Source: a virus | Taxonomy: Duplodnaviria > Caudoviricetes | Virus record (IMG/VR): IMGVR_UViG_3300020045_005812 | Coordinates: 1-30,057 of that record | DNA length: 30,057 nucleotides | Reading direction: 5' to 3' (one strand) | In this document: piece by piece, positions 4,635 to 29,652 of the stretch | Layout: the number at the start of each line of letters is the position of its first letter | Position numbering within the stretch: position 1 is the first letter of the stretch | Program-made: the position numbers and the translations under genes | The notes under the pieces: generated by a model | What the model was told of the DNA's origin: nothing | What the model saw: only the letters and a program-made list of their open reading frames with translations | Databases searched by the model: none

Positions 4635-4817
4635 TTAAATAAATTTACCTTCATGACCGTTATCGCTTACCCATTTTGTTTGATCTGGGTCTTTCCATAC
4701 ATCACACTCAATGGATGATTTTTGAGCGAAGTGCTTTTTTGCTTCCTCTAATGATTTTGCCTGACAGTTAAATTCCATTCTGTGACCTGATTTTTGTTTT
4801 GCTAGATAGTTTTTCAT
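4635..4817 (-). CDS. Hypothetical protein (60 aa)
   Basis: Tightly packed ORF; AKSLEEAKK motif is common in small phage proteins. Confidence 0.7.
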   Translation of the reverse strand: MKNYLAKQKSGHRMEFNCQAKSLEEAKKHFAQKSSIECDVWKDPDQTKWVSDNGHEGKFI

Positions 4818-4828
4818 GATATGACAAA

Positions 4829-5083
4829 TTAAAGGTTAATTGATTGTTTTTTTAATGATTCTAATCTCATTTGTTCGATTCTGTAGTCTGAAATTTCAGG
4901 GTTTAACCTACACATTTCCATCACAGGATTAACCTTTTTGGCTTTGGCATCTATTTTAACCAATTTGTTAACTAATTTAGTTATGCCTCCAAGTCCTAAC
5001 GTTTCAACTTCTACATATTCATAAACTAGTCCTTTTTTGTTTAGTAATTCAAGTGTTGTAATTTCTTTTGCTGTAAGTGTCAT
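4829..5083 (-). CDS. Hypothetical protein (84 aa)
   Basis: First ORF after the promoter at 5120-5127; ACTTATC directly precedes the ATG. Confidence 0.75.
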   Translation of the reverse strand: MTLTAKEITTLELLNKKGLVYEYVEVETLGLGGITKLVNKLVKIDAKAKKVNPVMEMCRLNPEISDYRIEQMRLESLKKQSINL

Positions 5084-5119
5084 GATAAGTTATTTTAATG
5101 TTTTGCTTTATTGCTGAGA

Positions 5120-5127
5120 CAAATATA
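5120..5127 (-). promoter_or_regulatory. Bacteroidota -7 promoter element TATATTTG
   Basis: Exact TAnnTTTG in the intergenic gap, 36 nt upstream of ATG 5083; no clear -33 TTG. Confidence 0.65.
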
Positions 5128-8217: not shown

Positions 8218-8305
8218 ACGTTTGCTTGATAAGTTTTTGACTTGGATCTAATTCTGATTCTGGACTTTCCACAAATGGGAAGTGATTTTTAAATAATGCT
8301 TTCAT
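8114..8305 (-). CDS. Hypothetical protein (63 aa) overlapping the next ORF by 104 nt
   Basis: Strong A-rich start (ATAAAAAAACTATG) 10 nt after the terminase stop. Confidence 0.55.
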   Translation of the reverse strand: MKALFKNHFPFVESPESELDPSQKLIKQTYEKLYPKEEIKTVKTNRLREVHGNDEPAEGAGKE

Positions 8306-10567: not shown

Positions 10568-12300
10568 AATTTCCAAGTTTTTATCAATTCAGTGATTGCA
10601 ACAGATTTTTGTATAGTATTGTCTGGATTAACCAATATATCATTTATAGAATCAGCAGCGTCTTGCAAAGCTTGTGCATAATACTCACGGCATTCGATAT
10701 ATTGTTTTTCTTCCAATACTGATACATGAGCTAAATCTAGCTCGTTTAAGAGCTTATTATCTGGATGAGGTAAACTATACCCAGAATGTTCTTTTACGCT
10801 TGCAAAAACATTGTCAGTATCTTCAGTGTCTAGTTTAGTTATAGAATTATAAACTTGTTCCTGTATTGAATAATTACCTGATGGATCTGGTGTTTTTATT
10901 TCTGAAACTGTAGCGAACGGATTATTTACCGGAACATTTACAGTTATCGCTCCTTCTCCTGCTGGCTCGCTAGGCATTAGTTTTAATAACATTGCTTTTA
11001 ATTCTGCTATCTGCTTTTCTTGTTCTGCAATTTTAGAATCCTGTTCAATCTTCACTGATTCCAAAGCGATAATAATAGCTTTTCCTTGAGTAACCAAGGC
11101 GGTAAAATCTGCATCTGTTTTCTCTTCAATATCTTTTTGAGTGATAACCAAAGAGCCAGCTCTGTAATCGTCAAATTCGCTGTTGTAAGTGAATGGAACT
11201 GCAAATAATTCTTTTACCCTGTTTTGCGCTTGAAGCAATAAACGATTATCCCAATCTTCTATTAGCTTTTTTTGCTTATCATAAGGCTCTCTAGTGAGTT
11301 TTGCAATTGGAACCAGTGCGGTTTTCAACATAGTCTTAAAAGTATTTAAATACTTCGTAGCTGTTGCCTCTACTCCTTTCGACCCATCAATTGCAGTACT
11401 GGCAGATAATAATATAGCAGCCACTTTTTTGGCCTCTGCATACGTTTTTTTATCTTTGATGATTACAACAGGATTTGCTTTTACAATTTCTTCTTGAGCA
11501 ATACGAAGTCCTTGTAACTCGGTAATTTTCTCAGGTGTTAGTTTTTCAAAAATTTGCAATGAAACACTATCGCTTGGTACTTGTACTTGTACTTGTACTT
11601 GTACTGTATCTACAATTATAGCCTGCTGAGGCTGATCTGTATTTACTACCTCTTCATATTTAGGCTTTATGTAATCATCGATGCTGATACCGTCACGAGT
11701 AAAATAAGCTAAATCATCTTTCAACACGTCAACACTACCTTTCTTTCCTTTTGAAATATTATAGTCGTTTAGTTTAGCTATATCTACGTAATTGAATAAC
11801 GGGAACTTATCTTGTAAATACAAAAAGTCCGCATGTCCTAAACCGTAATTTACATTGTTCTCTTCTATAACTCCAAGATCTGACAATGTAAGTTTGTTGG
11901 TCTCTATATGATTTTGAAAACTTGGTAGGTGTGAGGAATCTAAACCCAAATCGACTACTTCTATTTCGTGCCACTTCCCACCATGCGCTACGAGTATAAT
12001 AGATTGGTTTTTAATACCAGATTTTAGAAGGTTAGCTACTTCTACTTGTTCCGTGCCAAATTGCACTAAGATTGATTCTGAAGCCTCAAAGGCTTTTGGT
12101 TTTGATAATTTGTTCATTTGTGATAAGTGTTTATTGATTAATTCCCATTTTGCAAGCCCAGTTTCTAAATCTATCATGTCTTCGAAAACTAAATCAGTTA
12201 CAGCGTGTCCGCATTTAAAATATGCAGTTCCTTTTTCTGAAATATAATTCAGTTCAAAAATACGATCATTATTAGGTTCTGGGTATTTGTATTTTTTCAT
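10564..12300 (-). CDS. Large hypothetical coiled-coil protein (578 aa; possible internal start at 12117)
   Basis: Long ORF with a central helical region loosely reminiscent of DUF1351/Gam-like coiled coils, and a VQ repeat linker. Confidence 0.75.
   Translation of the reverse strand: MKKYKYPEPNNDRIFELNYISEKGTAYFKCGHAVTDLVFEDMIDLETGLAKWELINKHLSQMNKLSKPKAFEASESILVQFGTEQVEVANLLKSGIKNQSIILVAHGGKWHEIEVVDLGLDSSHLPSFQNHIETNKLTLSDLGVIEENNVNYGLGHADFLYLQDKFPLFNYVDIAKLNDYNISKGKKGSVDVLKDDLAYFTRDGISIDDYIKPKYEEVVNTDQPQQAIIVDTVQVQVQVQVPSDSVSLQIFEKLTPEKITELQGLRIAQEEIVKANPVVIIKDKKTYAEAKKVAAILLSASTAIDGSKGVEATATKYLNTFKTMLKTALVPIAKLTREPYDKQKKLIEDWDNRLLLQAQNRVKELFAVPFTYNSEFDDYRAGSLVITQKDIEEKTDADFTALVTQGKAIIIALESVKIEQDSKIAEQEKQIAELKAMLLKLMPSEPAGEGAITVNVPVNNPFATVSEIKTPDPSGNYSIQEQVYNSITKLDTEDTDNVFASVKEHSGYSLPHPDNKLLNELDLAHVSVLEEKQYIECREYYAQALQDAADSINDILVNPDNTIQKSVAITELIKTWKL
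11577..11605. repeat. Hexanucleotide tandem repeat (GTACTT)x4.8 encoding VQVQVQVQV
   Basis: Directly visible; in-frame unit. Confidence 0.9.
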
Positions 12301-18585: not shown

Positions 18586-18606
18586 TTTTGATAAGTTTTA
18601 AAATGA

Positions 18607-18828: not shown

Positions 18829-18839
18829 ATGATAAATTT

Positions 18840-19874: not shown

Positions 19875-20245
19875 GATTTTAATATTTCGAATTTACGTTC
19901 AGGTTTTATTTCTCTAACCACATCGAATTTTCTAAGATTCATTTTTACCGTGTAGCCGTATTTATTTTTGAACGTAACAAATTGATGCCATTCACACGAA
20001 TAAATAGTACAAACCAATGTGCAGAAATGATTTAAAACCTTATACGTATTTCCTGCCGTAGTAGATCTACCTGTCTCTTTAGCTAATATCATACTAGAAG
20101 GCAAGGTTTTTGGTTTATTTTCTAACATTAATTTTCTTTCAGCTGCTAAATCAGATTGTACTTTTAATTTTTCCTTAGTACCTAATGCCATATACCAGTT
20201 AGGCTTCAGATCTTGAATTGTTTTTTTATTGTAAGTTGTTTTCAT
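19871..20245 (-). CDS. Hypothetical protein (124 aa)
   Basis: First gene of the leftward operon; ACTTATC directly precedes the ATG. Confidence 0.8.
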   Translation of the reverse strand: MKTTYNKKTIQDLKPNWYMALGTKEKLKVQSDLAAERKLMLENKPKTLPSSMILAKETGRSTTAGNTYKVLNHFCTLVCTIYSCEWHQFVTFKNKYGYTVKMNLRKFDVVREIKPERKFEILKS

Positions 20246-20265
20246 GATAAGTGATTTTTATATGT

Positions 20266-20292
20266 CGCAAATATAATACTTATTTTTACGTA
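20266..20292 (-). promoter_or_regulatory. Leftward promoter (-7 TATATTTG); 27-bp repeat copy 2
   Basis: Identical to 12302-12328; lies in the divergent intergenic region. Confidence 0.8.
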
Positions 20293-21275: not shown

Positions 21276-21287
21276 TACTTATCAAAA

Positions 21288-21818
21288 ATGGAACAAACAA
21301 GAACGGACTGGAGAAAATTTAGAAAGTCCACGCATTTAGCCAGCGCAGATCTGGAAATCATGCAAACAGAAGGAAGATCAATGATTTTTAGAATCATAGA
21401 AGTAAGGCGTGAATTTCAAATGGTCAACGGTGTAAATACCGAAGGCGAATTTTGTAAGCTTGAAGGCGTTGAAAAGTATTTCAAGCTAAACACTAAAAAC
21501 AAAAAACAGATCGCTGTTTTTGCTGTTAAGAACGGTATTGCACCAGAGGATAAAAACGTTATTGAATACTGGTCAGGCTTGCTATTAGAGCTTTATATTG
21601 ACCATAATGTTAAGTTTGGTAGCGACATTGTTGACGGTATCAGAATTAAGCCATTACAGCCAGTAATTACAAAAATATTACCTGTCTTTCAAGAAGCAAA
21701 CTTTGAGCCAGCACACAAGGCAAAAGCAACGATTGAAACAATAAAAAAACATTATTCAGTAACTCCAGGGATGGAACAGAAATTTATTCAATATGTCAGA
21801 GCAAATACAACAGCGTAG
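21288..21818 (+). CDS. Hypothetical protein, candidate ssDNA-annealing partner of the exonuclease (176 aa)
   Basis: Lies between SSB-like/DnaQ-like genes and overlaps the YqaJ gene; no family recognised with certainty. Confidence 0.7.
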   Translation: MEQTRTDWRKFRKSTHLASADLEIMQTEGRSMIFRIIEVRREFQMVNGVNTEGEFCKLEGVEKYFKLNTKNKKQIAVFAVKNGIAPEDKNVIEYWSGLLLELYIDHNVKFGSDIVDGIRIKPLQPVITKILPVFQEANFEPAHKAKATIETIKKHYSVTPGMEQKFIQYVRANTTA

Positions 21819-22551
21819 CCCAGAATGGCACAAACAGCGTGCGAAAAAATTCACTGCGTCAAAAATCGTCAATCTATGTGCTGGCGGTTCCAGAAAAATG
21901 ACCGAAGAAGAATTAGCGCAGCACAAAATAGATTTTCCGAAATCCAGAAAAACTACTACTTGGGATATTCCTGAAGGATTAAAAACTTATGCGCTTGAAA
22001 AGGCTATAGATTTTTTTGTCAATCCTGATGAAGATTCTTATTTGTCTGAAGCTGTCGAGAAAGGCAAGGAGTTAGAGCCATTGGCTTTTGAAAAATTCAG
22101 GTCGTTAAAGGCTACAGAATTTTTAGAAGTTACAGAAGCTGAATTTATATCAAATGATGATGTAAGCGGGTCTAGTCCAGACGCATTAGTAAGCAATAAT
22201 TCAGTTGCTGAATTCAAATGCCCGAACAAAACAACTTTCTTTAGAATAGTACTGACTGGAGAAATTGAAAAAAAGTATTTCTTTCAAATGCAAAAACAAA
22301 TGAAAGATACTGGAGCTACACAGTGTTATTATTTTCCTTACTACATCCAAGATGGCGAAGAATACTGGCATGAAATTTTAGTCCCTCGTTGCGAAGAAAC
22401 GATAGCTTTGATTGAAGAAAGAATTTTGATTGCTGTAAAATTACGTGATAAATATGTGGAGCAAATAAAAAAGAATGCTCAGTGGTTGCCAAAAAACGTA
22501 AATGAAATAAAAGTTTTTGATCCAACAGTAATAAGTAACGAAGAATTTTAA
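21793..22551 (+). CDS. YqaJ/lambda-exonuclease family recombination nuclease (252 aa)
   Basis: QRSPEW..QR...FTAS, G.ELEP.A, SSPDALV, EFKCP, Y..QMQ.QM. Confidence 0.9.
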   Translation: MSEQIQQRSPEWHKQRAKKFTASKIVNLCAGGSRKMTEEELAQHKIDFPKSRKTTTWDIPEGLKTYALEKAIDFFVNPDEDSYLSEAVEKGKELEPLAFEKFRSLKATEFLEVTEAEFISNDDVSGSSPDALVSNNSVAEFKCPNKTTFFRIVLTGEIEKKYFFQMQKQMKDTGATQCYYFPYYIQDGEEYWHEILVPRCEETIALIEERILIAVKLRDKYVEQIKKNAQWLPKNVNEIKVFDPTVISNEEF

Positions 22552-22559
22552 TATCTTTG
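22552..22559 (+). promoter_or_regulatory. -7 element TATCTTTG with no downstream ORF
   Basis: Exact TAnnTTTG immediately after the YqaJ stop; terminator stem begins 29 nt downstream. Confidence 0.55.
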
Positions 22560-22562
22560 TCA

Positions 22563-22623
22563 GGATAAGTTTTTTTTGGTTAGTATGAAAAATCCCGCTC
22601 ATTGATTTGTAGCGGGATTTTTT
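22563..22623 (+). ncRNA. Candidate small regulatory RNA (~60 nt)
   Basis: Promoter - GATAAGTTTTTTTTGGTTAGT - terminator with no credible ORF; the 5' part is complementary to several start regions. Confidence 0.5.
22588..22623 (+). terminator. Rho-independent terminator, likely bidirectional
   Basis: AAAAATCCCGCT/AGCGGGATTTTT 12-bp stem at the convergence of two operons. Confidence 0.85.
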
Positions 22624-22628
22624 ATTCC

Positions 22629-22654
22629 AAAAATAAACCCGCATTTTGCGGGTT
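22629..22654 (-). terminator. Second rho-independent terminator
   Basis: AACCCGCA-TTT-TGCGGGTT stem with T-rich flanks, downstream of the 22-aa ORF. Confidence 0.75.
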
Positions 22655-24276: not shown

Positions 24277-26895
24277 TTATGGGTAAACTCTTATTTCTAG
24301 TACCGCACTATTAAGTCTTGAATCTGTTGGTGTCCCGCTATCATAAGAACCGTATGTAACGGTATTTACGTTTGTGAAATACGCCCTGTTGTGCAATATC
24401 TCTGTGCCTCCAATATTAGATCCTATACTAAGTGTAGCCGTGGTTTTGCCTGATACAAACGCGTTTGTAAAACCACAAGAAAATACCCCAGGAGCTGTTC
24501 TATTATGAGAAACAGTACTTCCTAATGTGTTCTCCAAGACTGTAACAACAGGTGCAGAAGTTCCTGTTTGCGATATTAAAGCGGTGTACTTCTTAGGCAA
24601 AACGCCTAACTGCCCTAAAGTTACAGCGTGGTTTGCAGTTGTCGCAGGTATAGTTATTACGTTTCCGGTAAATGCGGCATTCCCATTTCTATAAATATCT
24701 AATAAATTAGTCCCAAACCTTGAAAATCTAAAAGCTACAGTTGTTAATGTAGAAAAATCAGTGTTATCGTTCTCTCTTACGTTAAAAATCATATCTGAAC
24801 TAGCATTACTGTCATTAGCGGCTGATATAAATGTAAGTCCTGTGGAGTCATTGGACTTACCAACTAATGTAGGGATCCCAAGACTACTACTTCCGTTCCC
24901 GAAATCGAAAGACCCATTAAATTGACTTGGAATACTCAAAGTCGCTGTAAATCCAGTGTTTACACTTAATTTTTTAACAACATTTAACGGTTGCTCATTT
25001 GTGTCTGTGAATCCAACAGGCGGAGATCCTGACCACTCAGTAGAAGAGAATAGGCAACTAGAAATACCAGTAAAAACACTCGGAGTCATAGTAAATTTGC
25101 AATTTTTAAAGTTTGTGTTTGTACTTGTAGTTATAGATATATTTATAGAACTAATATTACAATTTAAAAACTGGTTATTGCCCGATCCACTTATGTATAT
25201 ATCGTTGTTCAATATCTGAACTCCGTTAAATAATTGTCCGTCCCCAAGACTCACTACATCTACGCCTTTGTCTATATTGTGATTAATACTACCTCCGGAA
25301 ATTGTAGAGTGGCCAGGATTCGCTCCTGTCGTGTAATACATTCCAGTTCTATTTCTCTCAAAAGTAGAATTAGAAAAAGGATTATTTCCACCTATATCAT
25401 ACACACCATACTCCCCCCCATAAGCTTTAATATTTGAAAATGAATTATACTCTCCCCTTTCGGCTAAAAAATATCCTATATAGCACGAATCAGCGTAGCA
25501 ATTAGAAATAATTGTATTACCTTCATTATTTACGTTTTTGTTAGAGGCTATTTTTATTCCTGCTCCTCCTAAATTGAAAAAAGACACATTTGAAATCCTT
25601 ACATTTTTATAAACGGTTATATCCACAACACCTTCAAGGTTTATACCTATTTGAAAAGGTCTTGTAGTAATGTAATTAGTTACTGATCCTCTGCCGTTAC
25701 CTTCAAGTCTAATACCATCTACAACTATATCATTTGCTTTTATGTCAAAAATAGGTAGATTAGACGTAGTACTTATCTTTCCATTGCCAATTATAGTAGT
25801 TTTATTAGATATAGTAATTGTCCCAGAGGTATAATAATTACCATTAAATAATACCATTTTACCCGAATTTATAGCGTTTTGAATGGGTGTTTTATCATCA
25901 GCAATACCGTCTGCTGCTGCGCCAAATTCTTCTGGTGTTGTATGTGTCGATTTTGAATTTAAAGCATTTAAAGCATCTGTAGTCGTAGTCCCTGCAACAT
26001 TTGAAAGATTCTGAACAGCAGTAGTGTTCAACGGCACAGGAACGTCTATATATGAGTTATAAGAATTACCAAGATATAGACTTTCAGTTATACTTGCCCC
26101 TGTTGTGCCTACTTTTTCAGCCGATATATGATAACGAACTCTTTCTCCTATATTTATTGTGAACGGAAATTCTATTGATGCACTAACGGGTACATTTGTA
26201 ACACTTCCGTCTGCTAATGTCAAGACTCCGCTGTCTAGTGTAGTTATTACAGTTACGCCTAAATCACCTACAATTGCTCCAGATATTCCAGACGCTATTG
26301 GAGTTCCTGCGTTATTGCATCTATACACCTCAACCGTAAATCGTTGTTGTGCGCTATTTGGAGTAGTACTTACAGATAAGTTTCCTGCGTAAACTCCTTT
26401 AGGGAAAGTAGTATTAGAGACATAAGCGTCTCCTATTAAGTCTTGTGTGAAGTATTTCTTTTCGTTATCGTTATTAATAACGCTAGGTACAGGTAAGGCA
26501 CTTGCTGTAGCTCCTTTATTTACAAAATTAGTTCTATAAAAAGTTCCTGCTGTAATTGTAGTCTGATCCGCGGTGAACCAGAGTCGTGTAGTAATTCCAG
26601 CTGTTGTAGATACAATGTTCCCTAAAGCATCATCAACGCCTTGAAAATACCCTTTAATATTATTCGTTACAGGAGTGAAATGAGTTACTGGAGGAATAAC
26701 ATCTAATGATATATTTTCGCCATTTATCTTGCCTAGAACTCCAGTATTACTCATGGTAGTAATATTATCGGACGTTGTCACTGTTTGTGGGTTTGTTATT
26801 AACAATCCCTCTACAGGGGTTTCAGATCCGTTAGCTGTCTGGCTATGCATCGTAAATGTTACGAATGCAAGTAATAGGAATATTAGTTTTTTCAT
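24277..26895 (-). CDS. Tailspike/depolymerase-like protein with right-handed beta-helix and N-terminal signal peptide (872 aa)
   Basis: PEEFGAAADGIADDKTPIQNAINSG is the pectate_lyase_3-type entry motif, followed by Asn/Gly-rich beta-helix rungs; MKKLIFLLLAFVTFTMHS-Q N-terminus. Confidence 0.75.
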   Translation of the reverse strand: MKKLIFLLLAFVTFTMHSQTANGSETPVEGLLITNPQTVTTSDNITTMSNTGVLGKINGENISLDVIPPVTHFTPVTNNIKGYFQGVDDALGNIVSTTAGITTRLWFTADQTTITAGTFYRTNFVNKGATASALPVPSVINNDNEKKYFTQDLIGDAYVSNTTFPKGVYAGNLSVSTTPNSAQQRFTVEVYRCNNAGTPIASGISGAIVGDLGVTVITTLDSGVLTLADGSVTNVPVSASIEFPFTINIGERVRYHISAEKVGTTGASITESLYLGNSYNSYIDVPVPLNTTAVQNLSNVAGTTTTDALNALNSKSTHTTPEEFGAAADGIADDKTPIQNAINSGKMVLFNGNYYTSGTITISNKTTIIGNGKISTTSNLPIFDIKANDIVVDGIRLEGNGRGSVTNYITTRPFQIGINLEGVVDITVYKNVRISNVSFFNLGGAGIKIASNKNVNNEGNTIISNCYADSCYIGYFLAERGEYNSFSNIKAYGGEYGVYDIGGNNPFSNSTFERNRTGMYYTTGANPGHSTISGGSINHNIDKGVDVVSLGDGQLFNGVQILNNDIYISGSGNNQFLNCNISSINISITTSTNTNFKNCKFTMTPSVFTGISSCLFSSTEWSGSPPVGFTDTNEQPLNVVKKLSVNTGFTATLSIPSQFNGSFDFGNGSSSLGIPTLVGKSNDSTGLTFISAANDSNASSDMIFNVRENDNTDFSTLTTVAFRFSRFGTNLLDIYRNGNAAFTGNVITIPATTANHAVTLGQLGVLPKKYTALISQTGTSAPVVTVLENTLGSTVSHNRTAPGVFSCGFTNAFVSGKTTATLSIGSNIGGTEILHNRAYFTNVNTVTYGSYDSGTPTDSRLNSAVLEIRVYP

Positions 26896-27494
26896 TGTAT
26901 AAAAAGAGTTATTAAGTTACCCGCAATAGTTACGGTTTTCAAAGTTACAACATTTCCAGTTTGTGTAAAAGTATAATTTTTAGTAACATTAGAAGCATCT
27001 GCTGGTAATTGTATTGCTTGATTTATAAATCCAAATACAGCTATTTTTCCTGCTGGTATTGCAAAATTTTGGTTAGGACTTGCGAGTATAGGGAAGAAGT
27101 AAGGCTGTAGCTGCACACCGCTTAACGGAGTCCAATACCCAGCAATTCTAACTTGTGGCTCTGCTGAATCTGCGTCAGTCACAAAAGCCTGTATTCCGTC
27201 ACCGTCATTGAAGAAATCACTTGTATTTTCTGGCTTGTTTTTTATGAAATCAACTTCTCCAGAATCTCCTTGATCCCAATCAGCCTGCACTTGTCCATCT
27301 TCTGCAAGTCCTGCCAGCTTGTCTTTCTCTATCTGTGTAAAATTAGTATCACTCAACCCTTTACCGACAACTTTATCAACCTTATTCGAGTAAAGTTCAT
27401 TGAAATTGCTTTCAGCTTTTATCTGTGAAGCTCTGAGCGTATCGCCAGTACCATCGTTAGGAGCAGACCCGTAATTTATATGTTGCTGTGCCAT
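26892..27494 (-). CDS. Virion fibre/collar-type structural protein (200 aa)
   Basis: INYGSAPNDGTGDTLR...K...NFNELY N-terminal motif, KVDKV.GKGLS and QADWDQ....DFIKNKP fibre motifs. Confidence 0.7.
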   Translation of the reverse strand: MAQQHINYGSAPNDGTGDTLRASQIKAESNFNELYSNKVDKVVGKGLSDTNFTQIEKDKLAGLAEDGQVQADWDQGDSGEVDFIKNKPENTSDFFNDGDGIQAFVTDADSAEPQVRIAGYWTPLSGVQLQPYFFPILASPNQNFAIPAGKIAVFGFINQAIQLPADASNVTKNYTFTQTGNVVTLKTVTIAGNLITLFIQ

Positions 27495-29343: not shown

Positions 29344-29639
29344 CTTTTTGTGTTTTGCGATTGGTTAGTGTAGTCTTGTATATCGGTATCATTTGCAACG
29401 AAAATCAATTTCCCTTTATAAACGATTTCGGAATTTCTTGTTAATTTAAATGAATAGGTAGTTCCCTGTACGAATCCAGTAGTTTCTTCAATGGTAACGA
29501 CTATCGTGTTTTTTACTATTTCCCAAGTCATAGAAATCATTAATCCATCATCTAAAGTGAAAATTAAATCATCTGTGATCTCTGGGTAAAATCTAGGAAC
29601 TAATTTTATGACAGGAATAGCTTCAGTAACTACTTTCAT
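29334..29639 (-). CDS. Hypothetical structural protein (101 aa)
   Basis: Overlaps the portal start; start reassigned to ATG 29639, downstream of the terminator. Confidence 0.65.
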   Translation of the reverse strand: MKVVTEAIPVIKLVPRFYPEITDDLIFTLDDGLMISMTWEIVKNTIVVTIEETTGFVQGTTYSFKLTRNSEIVYKGKLIFVANDTDIQDYTNQSQNTKRWK

Positions 29640-29652
29640 TTGTATTTTTATT

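Follow-up and report, generated by a model that had tools for sequence, protein, structure and literature searches.

DapZ is an Hfq-dependent enterobacterial small RNA located in a 3' UTR, where it shares the terminator of the upstream operon but is transcribed from its own internal promoter, and it carries a G/U-rich seed. In the Bacteroidota, GibS of Bacteroides thetaiotaomicron is a trans-acting 145-nt host RNA with a non-canonical promoter, an unstructured 5' seed region of 30-50 nt and a terminator; its 5' part pairs at the start regions of mRNAs lacking a Shine-Dalgarno (SD) sequence and represses them, with two metabolic targets shown in the available part of that report (PMC7366714). 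Among phages, c4 of P1 and P7 and sar of P22 block translation of phage mRNA near the ribosome-binding site; according to the portion of the source consulted, both act on antirepressor mRNA in temperate phages, c4 by way of loop sequences (PMC12197685). The SAS of the Cluster K mycobacteriophages is a private, asymmetric 13-bp tag with an SD core, found a few bases before mostly non-structural genes of different families and absent from the host; some genomes have a single copy in reverse orientation, and the accessible text names no partner for it (PMC3203893).

The locus described here lies in a 30-kb phage contig of ~35% GC (30,057 nt, analyzed over its whole length and referred to below as the window) and combines aspects of these systems. 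Like GibS, the unit has a conserved, single-stranded 5' seed complementary to start regions, as judged from its sequence, and a terminator; it differs in being phage-borne, in its predicted length of ~60 nt, in a conserved seed of only ~10 nt and in that its targets share a private tag. It resembles c4 and sar as a phage RNA that would block translation of phage mRNA, but its seed is a free 5' end and its targets are many, unrelated and led by a recombinase; comparison of the window with Rfam gave no match to the c4 or sar families, and none of the tagged genes scanned is named an antirepressor. The tag recalls SAS as a private, one-orientation sequence before unrelated genes, whereas it is 7-10 nt long, is unrelated to the SD sequence, does not follow the 13-bp SD-core consensus and has its reverse copy within a promoter-terminator unit. 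Rfam comparison indicated no sequence relation to DapZ. A search of the literature, with most subscription papers outside its scope, returned no such RNA for a Bacteroidota phage. We consider it likely that the unit is a gene for a trans-acting small RNA with a 5' seed that represses translation of the tagged phage genes. This is the core of what the preliminary description proposed (a discrete RNA, a 5' seed, several start-region targets and a translational block), and at the level of sequence three lines of evidence support it: the unit is conserved, unit and tag occur together, and their variation is compatible with G·U pairing.

The window contains terminase, portal, lysis, helicase and recombination genes. 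Its portal protein is 44% identical to homologs named from Flavobacterium genomes and 24% identical to that of a Nonlabens phage, and several of its genes are preceded by TAnnTTTG boxes; based on these three features, the host is likely a Flavobacterium or a relative. A short rightward recombination operon, which encodes a DUF3127 ssb, an exonuclease, a 176-aa protein and a YqaJ exonuclease, has its end at 22551, where it meets the convergent lysis genes, and the unit is placed in that junction. Judging by its position in the operon, the 176-aa protein is likely an ssDNA-annealing or -binding protein. Its structure model has a pLDDT of 89.7, and a PDB fold search produced no matches at E<=0.001 and only weak OB-fold/RPA rows; searches of Pfam, the ESM Atlas and the PDB yielded no name, and the BFVD matches at E<=0.001 were all to uncharacterised phage proteins. 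Searches of five contigs, two of them complete, turned up no tyrosine integrase, no resolvase-type recombinase and no S24 repressor, exonuclease and portal alignments recovered no prophage relatives in genome contigs, and the unit-bearing phages are probably virulent as judged by gene content. A 22-codon ORF, 22729-22661 (-), ends beside the second hairpin of the junction, and similar small ORFs were read by eye after the hairpin behind the recombination operon in G013 and G005.

The TATCTTTG box begins directly after the stop codon of the exonuclease gene. In F. psychrophilum the TAnnTTTG box is placed at -12 to -5 in the consulted part of PMC9723704, and the predicted +1 is therefore 22564, the G of GATAAG and first base of the seed. 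As the preliminary description had it, box, seed and terminator follow one another here with no credible ORF, and in relatives no ORF stands behind the tag copy. By these sequence features the unit would have its own promoter and intrinsic terminator and be non-coding; a minus-strand ORF (22441-22644) crosses it. Folding leaves 22562-22584 unpaired, such that 21 unpaired nucleotides of the predicted RNA precede a hairpin of -21.2 kcal/mol (z -4.80). Rfam 15 had no match in the window at the gathering threshold, the best sub-threshold match reaching 39.6 bits (cut-off 54) on the minus strand over the hairpins. Coordinates are collected in Table 1.

Table 1. Positions of the unit, the neighboring operon genes and the putative target tags in the window, with one class of leader seen in family members.
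Feature	Position	Strand	Remarks
TAnnTTTG sigma-A-type box, TATCTTTG	22552..22559	+	predicted -12..-5; no TTG at -33
Small RNA, predicted ~60 nt	22564..22623	+	from box spacing and terminator
5' seed, GATAAGTTTT	22564..22573	+	complement of (A)AAACTTATC; unpaired, mean probability 0.93
Linker, U/G-rich	22574..22584	+	unpaired; possible second pairing with TAATCA upstream of tag
Intrinsic-terminator-like hairpin and U-tract	22585..22625	+	usable in both directions; other hairpins in relatives
Second terminator-like hairpin	22636..22654		late-gene side
YqaJ-like exonuclease gene, last of operon	21793..22551	+	PF09588, E 1.1e-14; PHROGs
176-aa protein gene, phrog_21613	21288..21818	+	occupies position of RecT or Sak4 in relatives
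Tag	21277..21283	+	4 nt before ATG 21288 of 176-aa gene; most constant target position
Tag	20246..20252	-	directly before ATG 20245, first gene behind TAnnTTTG box at 20275
Wobble variant, ATTTATC	18831..18837	-	before ATG 18828; missed by preliminary description
Tag	18590..18596	-	before ATG 18585; 10-nt perfect pairing
Tag	12122..12128	-	before ATG 12117, true start of 517-aa gene
Tag	8228..8234	-	10 nt before ATG 8217; doubtful
Tag	5084..5090	-	directly before ATG 5083; inserted tail-region gene with own TAnnTTTG box at 5127
GTGTGAAG-type leaders in family members	L205 6575, L211 6842, L213 6724, L214 1870, L216 6541, L220 6652, L222 6950	+ (all)	

The unit was found in 25 contigs, 21 of them distinct, belonging to both siphovirus-like and contractile-tail phages; conservation counts over the 25 are partly circular because some copies were found by pattern, and one pattern scan took in 43 of the 64 parts of the collection. 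Eleven copies, including that of the window, were recovered without the box pattern (by protein homology, gene position or tag), and these keep TA..TTT, the seed and a hairpin, with changes in the spacer, the hairpin and the upstream gene. In six contigs identified by exonuclease or portal homology (L007, L040, L041, L039, L191 and L206), the unit lies directly behind the last gene of the operon; the operon genes of L206 differ, with a Sak4-like gene first. Across relatives found in this manner, TAnnTTTG, the 4-nt spacer and GATARGTTTT are fixed, and the nn, the spacer bases and the hairpin vary. A search with the tag alone gave 61 loci, among them L310 and phages with a tail sheath, a different head module and a related early module. 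The unit predicted at the end of the recombination operon of these tag-found contractile-tail contigs was present in three of three (G172, G173 and L338); here the box reads TAnnTTTA and is followed by a spacer of 5 nt, a combination that occurs in 17 of the 25 units and is not the textbook box. In G172 (L344/L345) and G173 (L346/L347), TAnnTTTAC stands before 4/49 and 3/37 genes, respectively, mostly structural; this sequence, which also heads the units of both contigs, could represent either a variant promoter or one for late genes. Seed nucleotides 1-9 (GATARGTTT) are shared by all 21 distinct units, a partly circular count, and variation begins at nucleotide 11. The upstream gene is co-directional and 0-141 nt away in all 24 contigs that have one, and a convergent gene faces the unit in 25 of 25.

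Comparable units outside these phages were sought with little return. Among 151 genomes of the family of G019, nine matched box plus seed, against nine control matches, and none of 27 further matches in genome contigs showed the full box-seed-terminator arrangement by eye; both sets were dismissed as chance. A blastn search of GenBank phages with the unit gave short matches only (best E 0.1 among the matches listed). Flavobacterium phage FCV-1 has a RecT homolog, and in the 30 of its 46 kb that were covered none of 48 starts is tagged and no unit is present; a U/G-rich stretch with a hairpin between its late and early genes (L556, 12711-12790 (+)) resembles an anti-leader unit.

ACTTATC occurs 12 times in the window: six copies precede an ATG, one is the antisense copy in the unit and five are elsewhere. 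The six sites reported before start codons are all where they were placed, at 0, 10, 4, 4, 0 and 4 nt from an ATG in order of ascending coordinate, and the perfect pairing reported for the sites at 18590 (10 nt) and 8228 (11 nt) was confirmed. The extended match between 22558-22576 and 5078-5096 is correct at 17 of 19 positions, but six of the 19 lie upstream of the predicted +1. The site at 8228 is present as described, but its role as a target is doubtful because 8228-8234 also codes for Leu-Ile in an overlapping ORF, 8305-8114, that 13 of 14 readable relatives share. This frame and the one that it overlaps, 8217-7576 (both on the minus strand), each look conserved in 13 of the 14, with the peptide NRLREVH in one and QIDYEKF in the other, and G014 has the long frame only; the arrangement could reflect dual coding or a frameshift product. 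The start at 12117, listed previously as internal, is a genuine gene start, as orthologs of the 517-aa gene begin at that ATG and carry the tag in four relatives (G001, G002, G003 and G016). A 61-codon, leaderless-looking stretch, 12300-12117 (-), is fused in frame to this gene in the window. The leader of the gene starting at 20245 is kept ahead of different genes in four relatives.

The tag is enriched at starts in the window, in agreement with the preliminary description. It is found in the -20 to -1 region of 5 of 42 curated starts (first in-frame ATGs with 12117 uncounted, on a list drawn up after the motif was seen), for a binomial P of 5.6e-7 against coding-strand 20-mers, and it is the top 7-mer with at least two G/C in leaders. 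In 3000 leader shuffles, any 7-mer with at least two G/C reached five starts once and at least four in 16, the figure of 16/3000 being the one that applies, with four starts, if 8217 is dropped. When the starts of the window were ranked by duplex with nucleotides 1-22 of the predicted RNA, the tagged ones came at 1, 2, 9, 10, 11 and 12 of 48, mixed with untagged ones.

The presence of the tag follows the presence of the unit. ACTTATC was found in 50 of 681 distinct leaders from the 25 unit contigs as opposed to none of 328 in 11 sister contigs that have related portals and no unit (two complete, the rest fragments); because of kinship among the unit contigs and the common ancestry of their early modules, these counts are not independent. 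Another count gave 34/275 versus 0/386 tagged leaders; among its contigs was G001, a tagged contig that breaks off short of the site of the unit. No tag was seen at 290 mechanically called starts in 400 kb of sequence taken from five host-family genomes. Of 174 ACTTATC sites in 85 distant exonuclease loci, four stand before an ORF, compared with 21 of 37 sites in five family sequences. A search with only box and seed returned 119 loci, of which the 16 with a terminator (two known before, six 622-bp pieces, and the unrelated and untagged L418 among them) had 12 tags at 219 starts and the 103 without one had none at 1322; the new family loci of more than 5 kb from this search were tagged in seven of seven cases. 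When negative sequences were scanned with a loose unit pattern, 5 of 96 gave a match, which on visual inspection fell within a reading frame in every case. Three unrelated contigs, G018, L418 and L485, have box, seed and hairpin but no ACTTATC-tagged start. In G018 (L248, 1082(+)) the box, GATAAGTTTT and a terminator are accompanied by AACTATC, one base off the seed complement, at 3 of 29 starts; the G018 record looks like a palindromic assembly.

The 55 tagged genes represent 28 protein families, with the tag 0-5 nt before the ATG in 51 of them. Those with names include RecT, Sak4, primase, RNase H and three DNA methyltransferases, one of which has its tag at an internal in-frame ATG, and most are unnamed early or inserted genes. 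A small tail-region gene is also tagged in G172 (26892-27224), G176 (29349-29648) and G183 (4779-5078), and the targets are therefore not early genes only; in G172 and G183 it belongs to phrog_21320, and in G172, where it lies between the tube and tape-measure positions, it is likely a tail chaperone. The most constant target, overlooked as such in the preliminary description, is the annealing-position gene of the operon ahead of the unit, in the window the gene at 21288. Located by BLAST, this gene is tagged in 21 of 21 unit contigs (19 exact, one ATTTATC and one ACCTATC) as compared to none of 64 homologs elsewhere, the latter from partial loci, and the tag at this position spans RecT, Sak4 and phrog_21613. 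In L310 the gene of the 176-aa family bears the sole tag among 27 starts, and its 82%-identical ortholog in G012 is untagged. L530 and L354 are exceptions: the former has an untagged RecT-like gene and the tag on the preceding gene, and in the latter the position of RecT is occupied by an unnamed gene, which bears the tag.

Variation in seed and tag is compatible with pairing. Within seed nucleotides 1-9 the only change is A5G, in 8 of 25 contigs, which still pairs with ACTTATC by G·U. Of the 21 possible one-mismatch tags, ATTTATC alone is enriched (11 vs 0, p 0.013 uncorrected), and its changed base forms a G·U pair with seed G6. This argument is weakened since C-to-T is a common mutation. 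CCTATC leaders occur at 4/244 starts with a G seed and 1/486 with an A seed (p 0.045), and at the primase gene the leader has CTATC in a related pair of G-seed contigs as against ACTTATC in a pair with the A seed, yet G178 has an A seed and ACCTATC at RecT. With few events, related genomes and this one counter-example, the compensatory signal is weak. An A at -3 of the tag (53/54) faces seed U10, and conservation fades beyond on both sides. The suggestion that GGUUAGU targets ACUAACC-containing leaders did not hold: CTAACC or TAACC lies upstream of none of 49 tagged leaders, and ACTAACC is in none of 290 host-family leaders. TAATCA is found upstream of the tag in 9 of 49 tagged leaders versus 17 of 605, and a second contact of GGUUA or GAUUA with this sequence is possible. 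Beyond the seed, units show no preference for the leader of their own annealing gene (mean -13.9 vs -13.7 kcal/mol). Pairing through the seed would give a short, A/U-rich duplex; Bacteroides has no obvious Hfq or ProQ, and longer seeds may be needed there, as stated in the part of PMC7366714 consulted.

Other promoter-to-terminator units were observed outside the tagged family. In the 85 distant loci, U-rich anti-start units exist, with seeds that match generic leaders; the best distant seed/tag cases, L163, L176 and L180, have three starts each (uncorrected). The units at L176 939(+) and L180 8771(+) have a free part that mirrors AACGAAAA, a motif present at 3 of 25 local starts for the first and 3 of 22 for the second, against a background of 0.5%, and these are possibly another seed/tag pair. 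In sister phages that lack the GATAAG unit, other TAnnTTTG-to-terminator units begin with TCATAAT, the mirror of ATTATGA starts (G014:17827(-), L234; G015:7059(-), L244; G005:14440(-), L236; G008:16028(-), L251). AAATTATG is present in 11 of 62 G014 starts and 6 of 274 tagged-clade starts, which is suggestive of a pairing of these TTCATAAT units with AAATTATG, a generic motif with a background of 7%. Promoter-to-hairpin leaders with a shared GTGTGAAG..GCAC-like element precede the head-protease gene of family members (Table 1), and in G002 (L227, 6580-7983 (-)) an XkdF-like head protease is fused to a NUDIX domain.

The location of the unit allows for an action in cis, with the seed as the 3' end of the recombination-operon mRNA folding back on the tag of the annealing gene, no free small RNA and secondary roles for the other tags. 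The close co-directional gene upstream in 24 of 24 contigs (0-141 nt), a constant target within the same operon and the lone annealing-position tag of L310 among its 27 starts are all as this would predict. We nevertheless think it unlikely, since the distance from box to seed is fixed while the spacer bases vary, and five of the six tags of the window are on opposite-strand transcripts that would need pairing in trans. The unit could also be the relic leader of a lost minus-strand gene, its TAnnTTTG box a chance product of the first codons. Its reverse strand does read as leader-like, and in L293 and L300 a tagged leader with a real gene behind it comes after a hairpin, so that the unit may have arisen from such a leader; but it has been kept while upstream genes, hairpins and tail types differ, making a present-day relic very improbable. 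A minus-strand gene at this place was rejected, as an ATG lies within 14 nt of the tag copy in only 2 of 21 distinct units, giving one and four codons.

A further reading makes the tag the site of a phage protein (an RNA-binding regulator or a DNA-binding protein at an operator) or a translation enhancer, and the unit a reversed site or other-strand decoy. The Cluster K mycobacteriophages offer a precedent, having private start tags with one reversed site in some genomes, in the available text of PMC3203893, and a tag that tracks a clade could equally track a clade-specific protein. Yet on the seed strand the reverse copy is equipped with a terminator and with a box at transcription-start spacing, and it is set apart from the late transcript by hairpins. 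In eight contigs it reads ACCTATC where the tags are mostly ACTTATC (14 vs 2), a difference that G·U pairing allows but that would not be expected of a shared protein site; the tag is also absent from host-family starts and has no match to the anti-SD CCUCC. We thus regard a protein site or enhancer as quite improbable. Finally, a real RNA might pair with the tags and stabilize, process or activate the messages, possibly with a protein partner, as the sequence evidence speaks to pairing and not to its sign, and the tagged genes include some needed early, such as RecT and primase. A position of 0-5 nt from the ATG in 51 of 55 tagged genes, inside the ribosome footprint, and the finding that low structure favors initiation in F. 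johnsoniae, in the consulted portion of PMC8710568, argue against such an outcome, to which we give a low probability.

In the preferred reading, that of a trans-acting repressor, host sigma-A polymerase would transcribe the unit from 22564, although processing from the 3' end of the operon would also be possible. The unpaired 5' end, GAUAAGUUUU, of the ~60-nt RNA would then pair in trans with ACTTATC, which this phage carries 0-10 nt ahead of six of its start codons, and a duplex at -13 to -1 would likely block ribosome loading and thereby initiation. Repression is the expected outcome because Bacteroidia seldom make use of SD pairing; they initiate on unstructured leaders, relying on low structure and A-rich sequence instead (PMC8710568, in the part available). 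The RNA would accumulate during infection and cap or switch off the annealing-protein gene along with a changing set of early and inserted genes, timing being the weakest step of this proposal. Since the five contigs searched have no integrase, resolvase or S24 repressor, it would act as a damper or timer of the lytic cycle rather than in lysogenic immunity. More tentatively, and with less than even confidence, the unit may be a protein-free master switch, with a single 60-nt RNA, encoded where the recombination operon ends, shutting down a regulon whose members are marked by a tag of 7-10 nt. Such a circuit would be exchanged between siphovirus-like and contractile-tail phages as part of the early module and hold whichever annealing protein is present (RecT, Sak4 or the unnamed family), new genes would join by gaining the tag, and sister phages would use other seed/tag pairs.

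If the proposal is correct, these phages would have a small RNA with a regulon of their own genes in a phylum that lacks SD pairing and an obvious Hfq, and phage recombination genes would be under RNA-level control in the lytic cycle. It offers a testable answer to the purpose of private start tags such as SAS, and the unit would provide a minimal 60-nt scaffold for translational knock-down in Flavobacterium.
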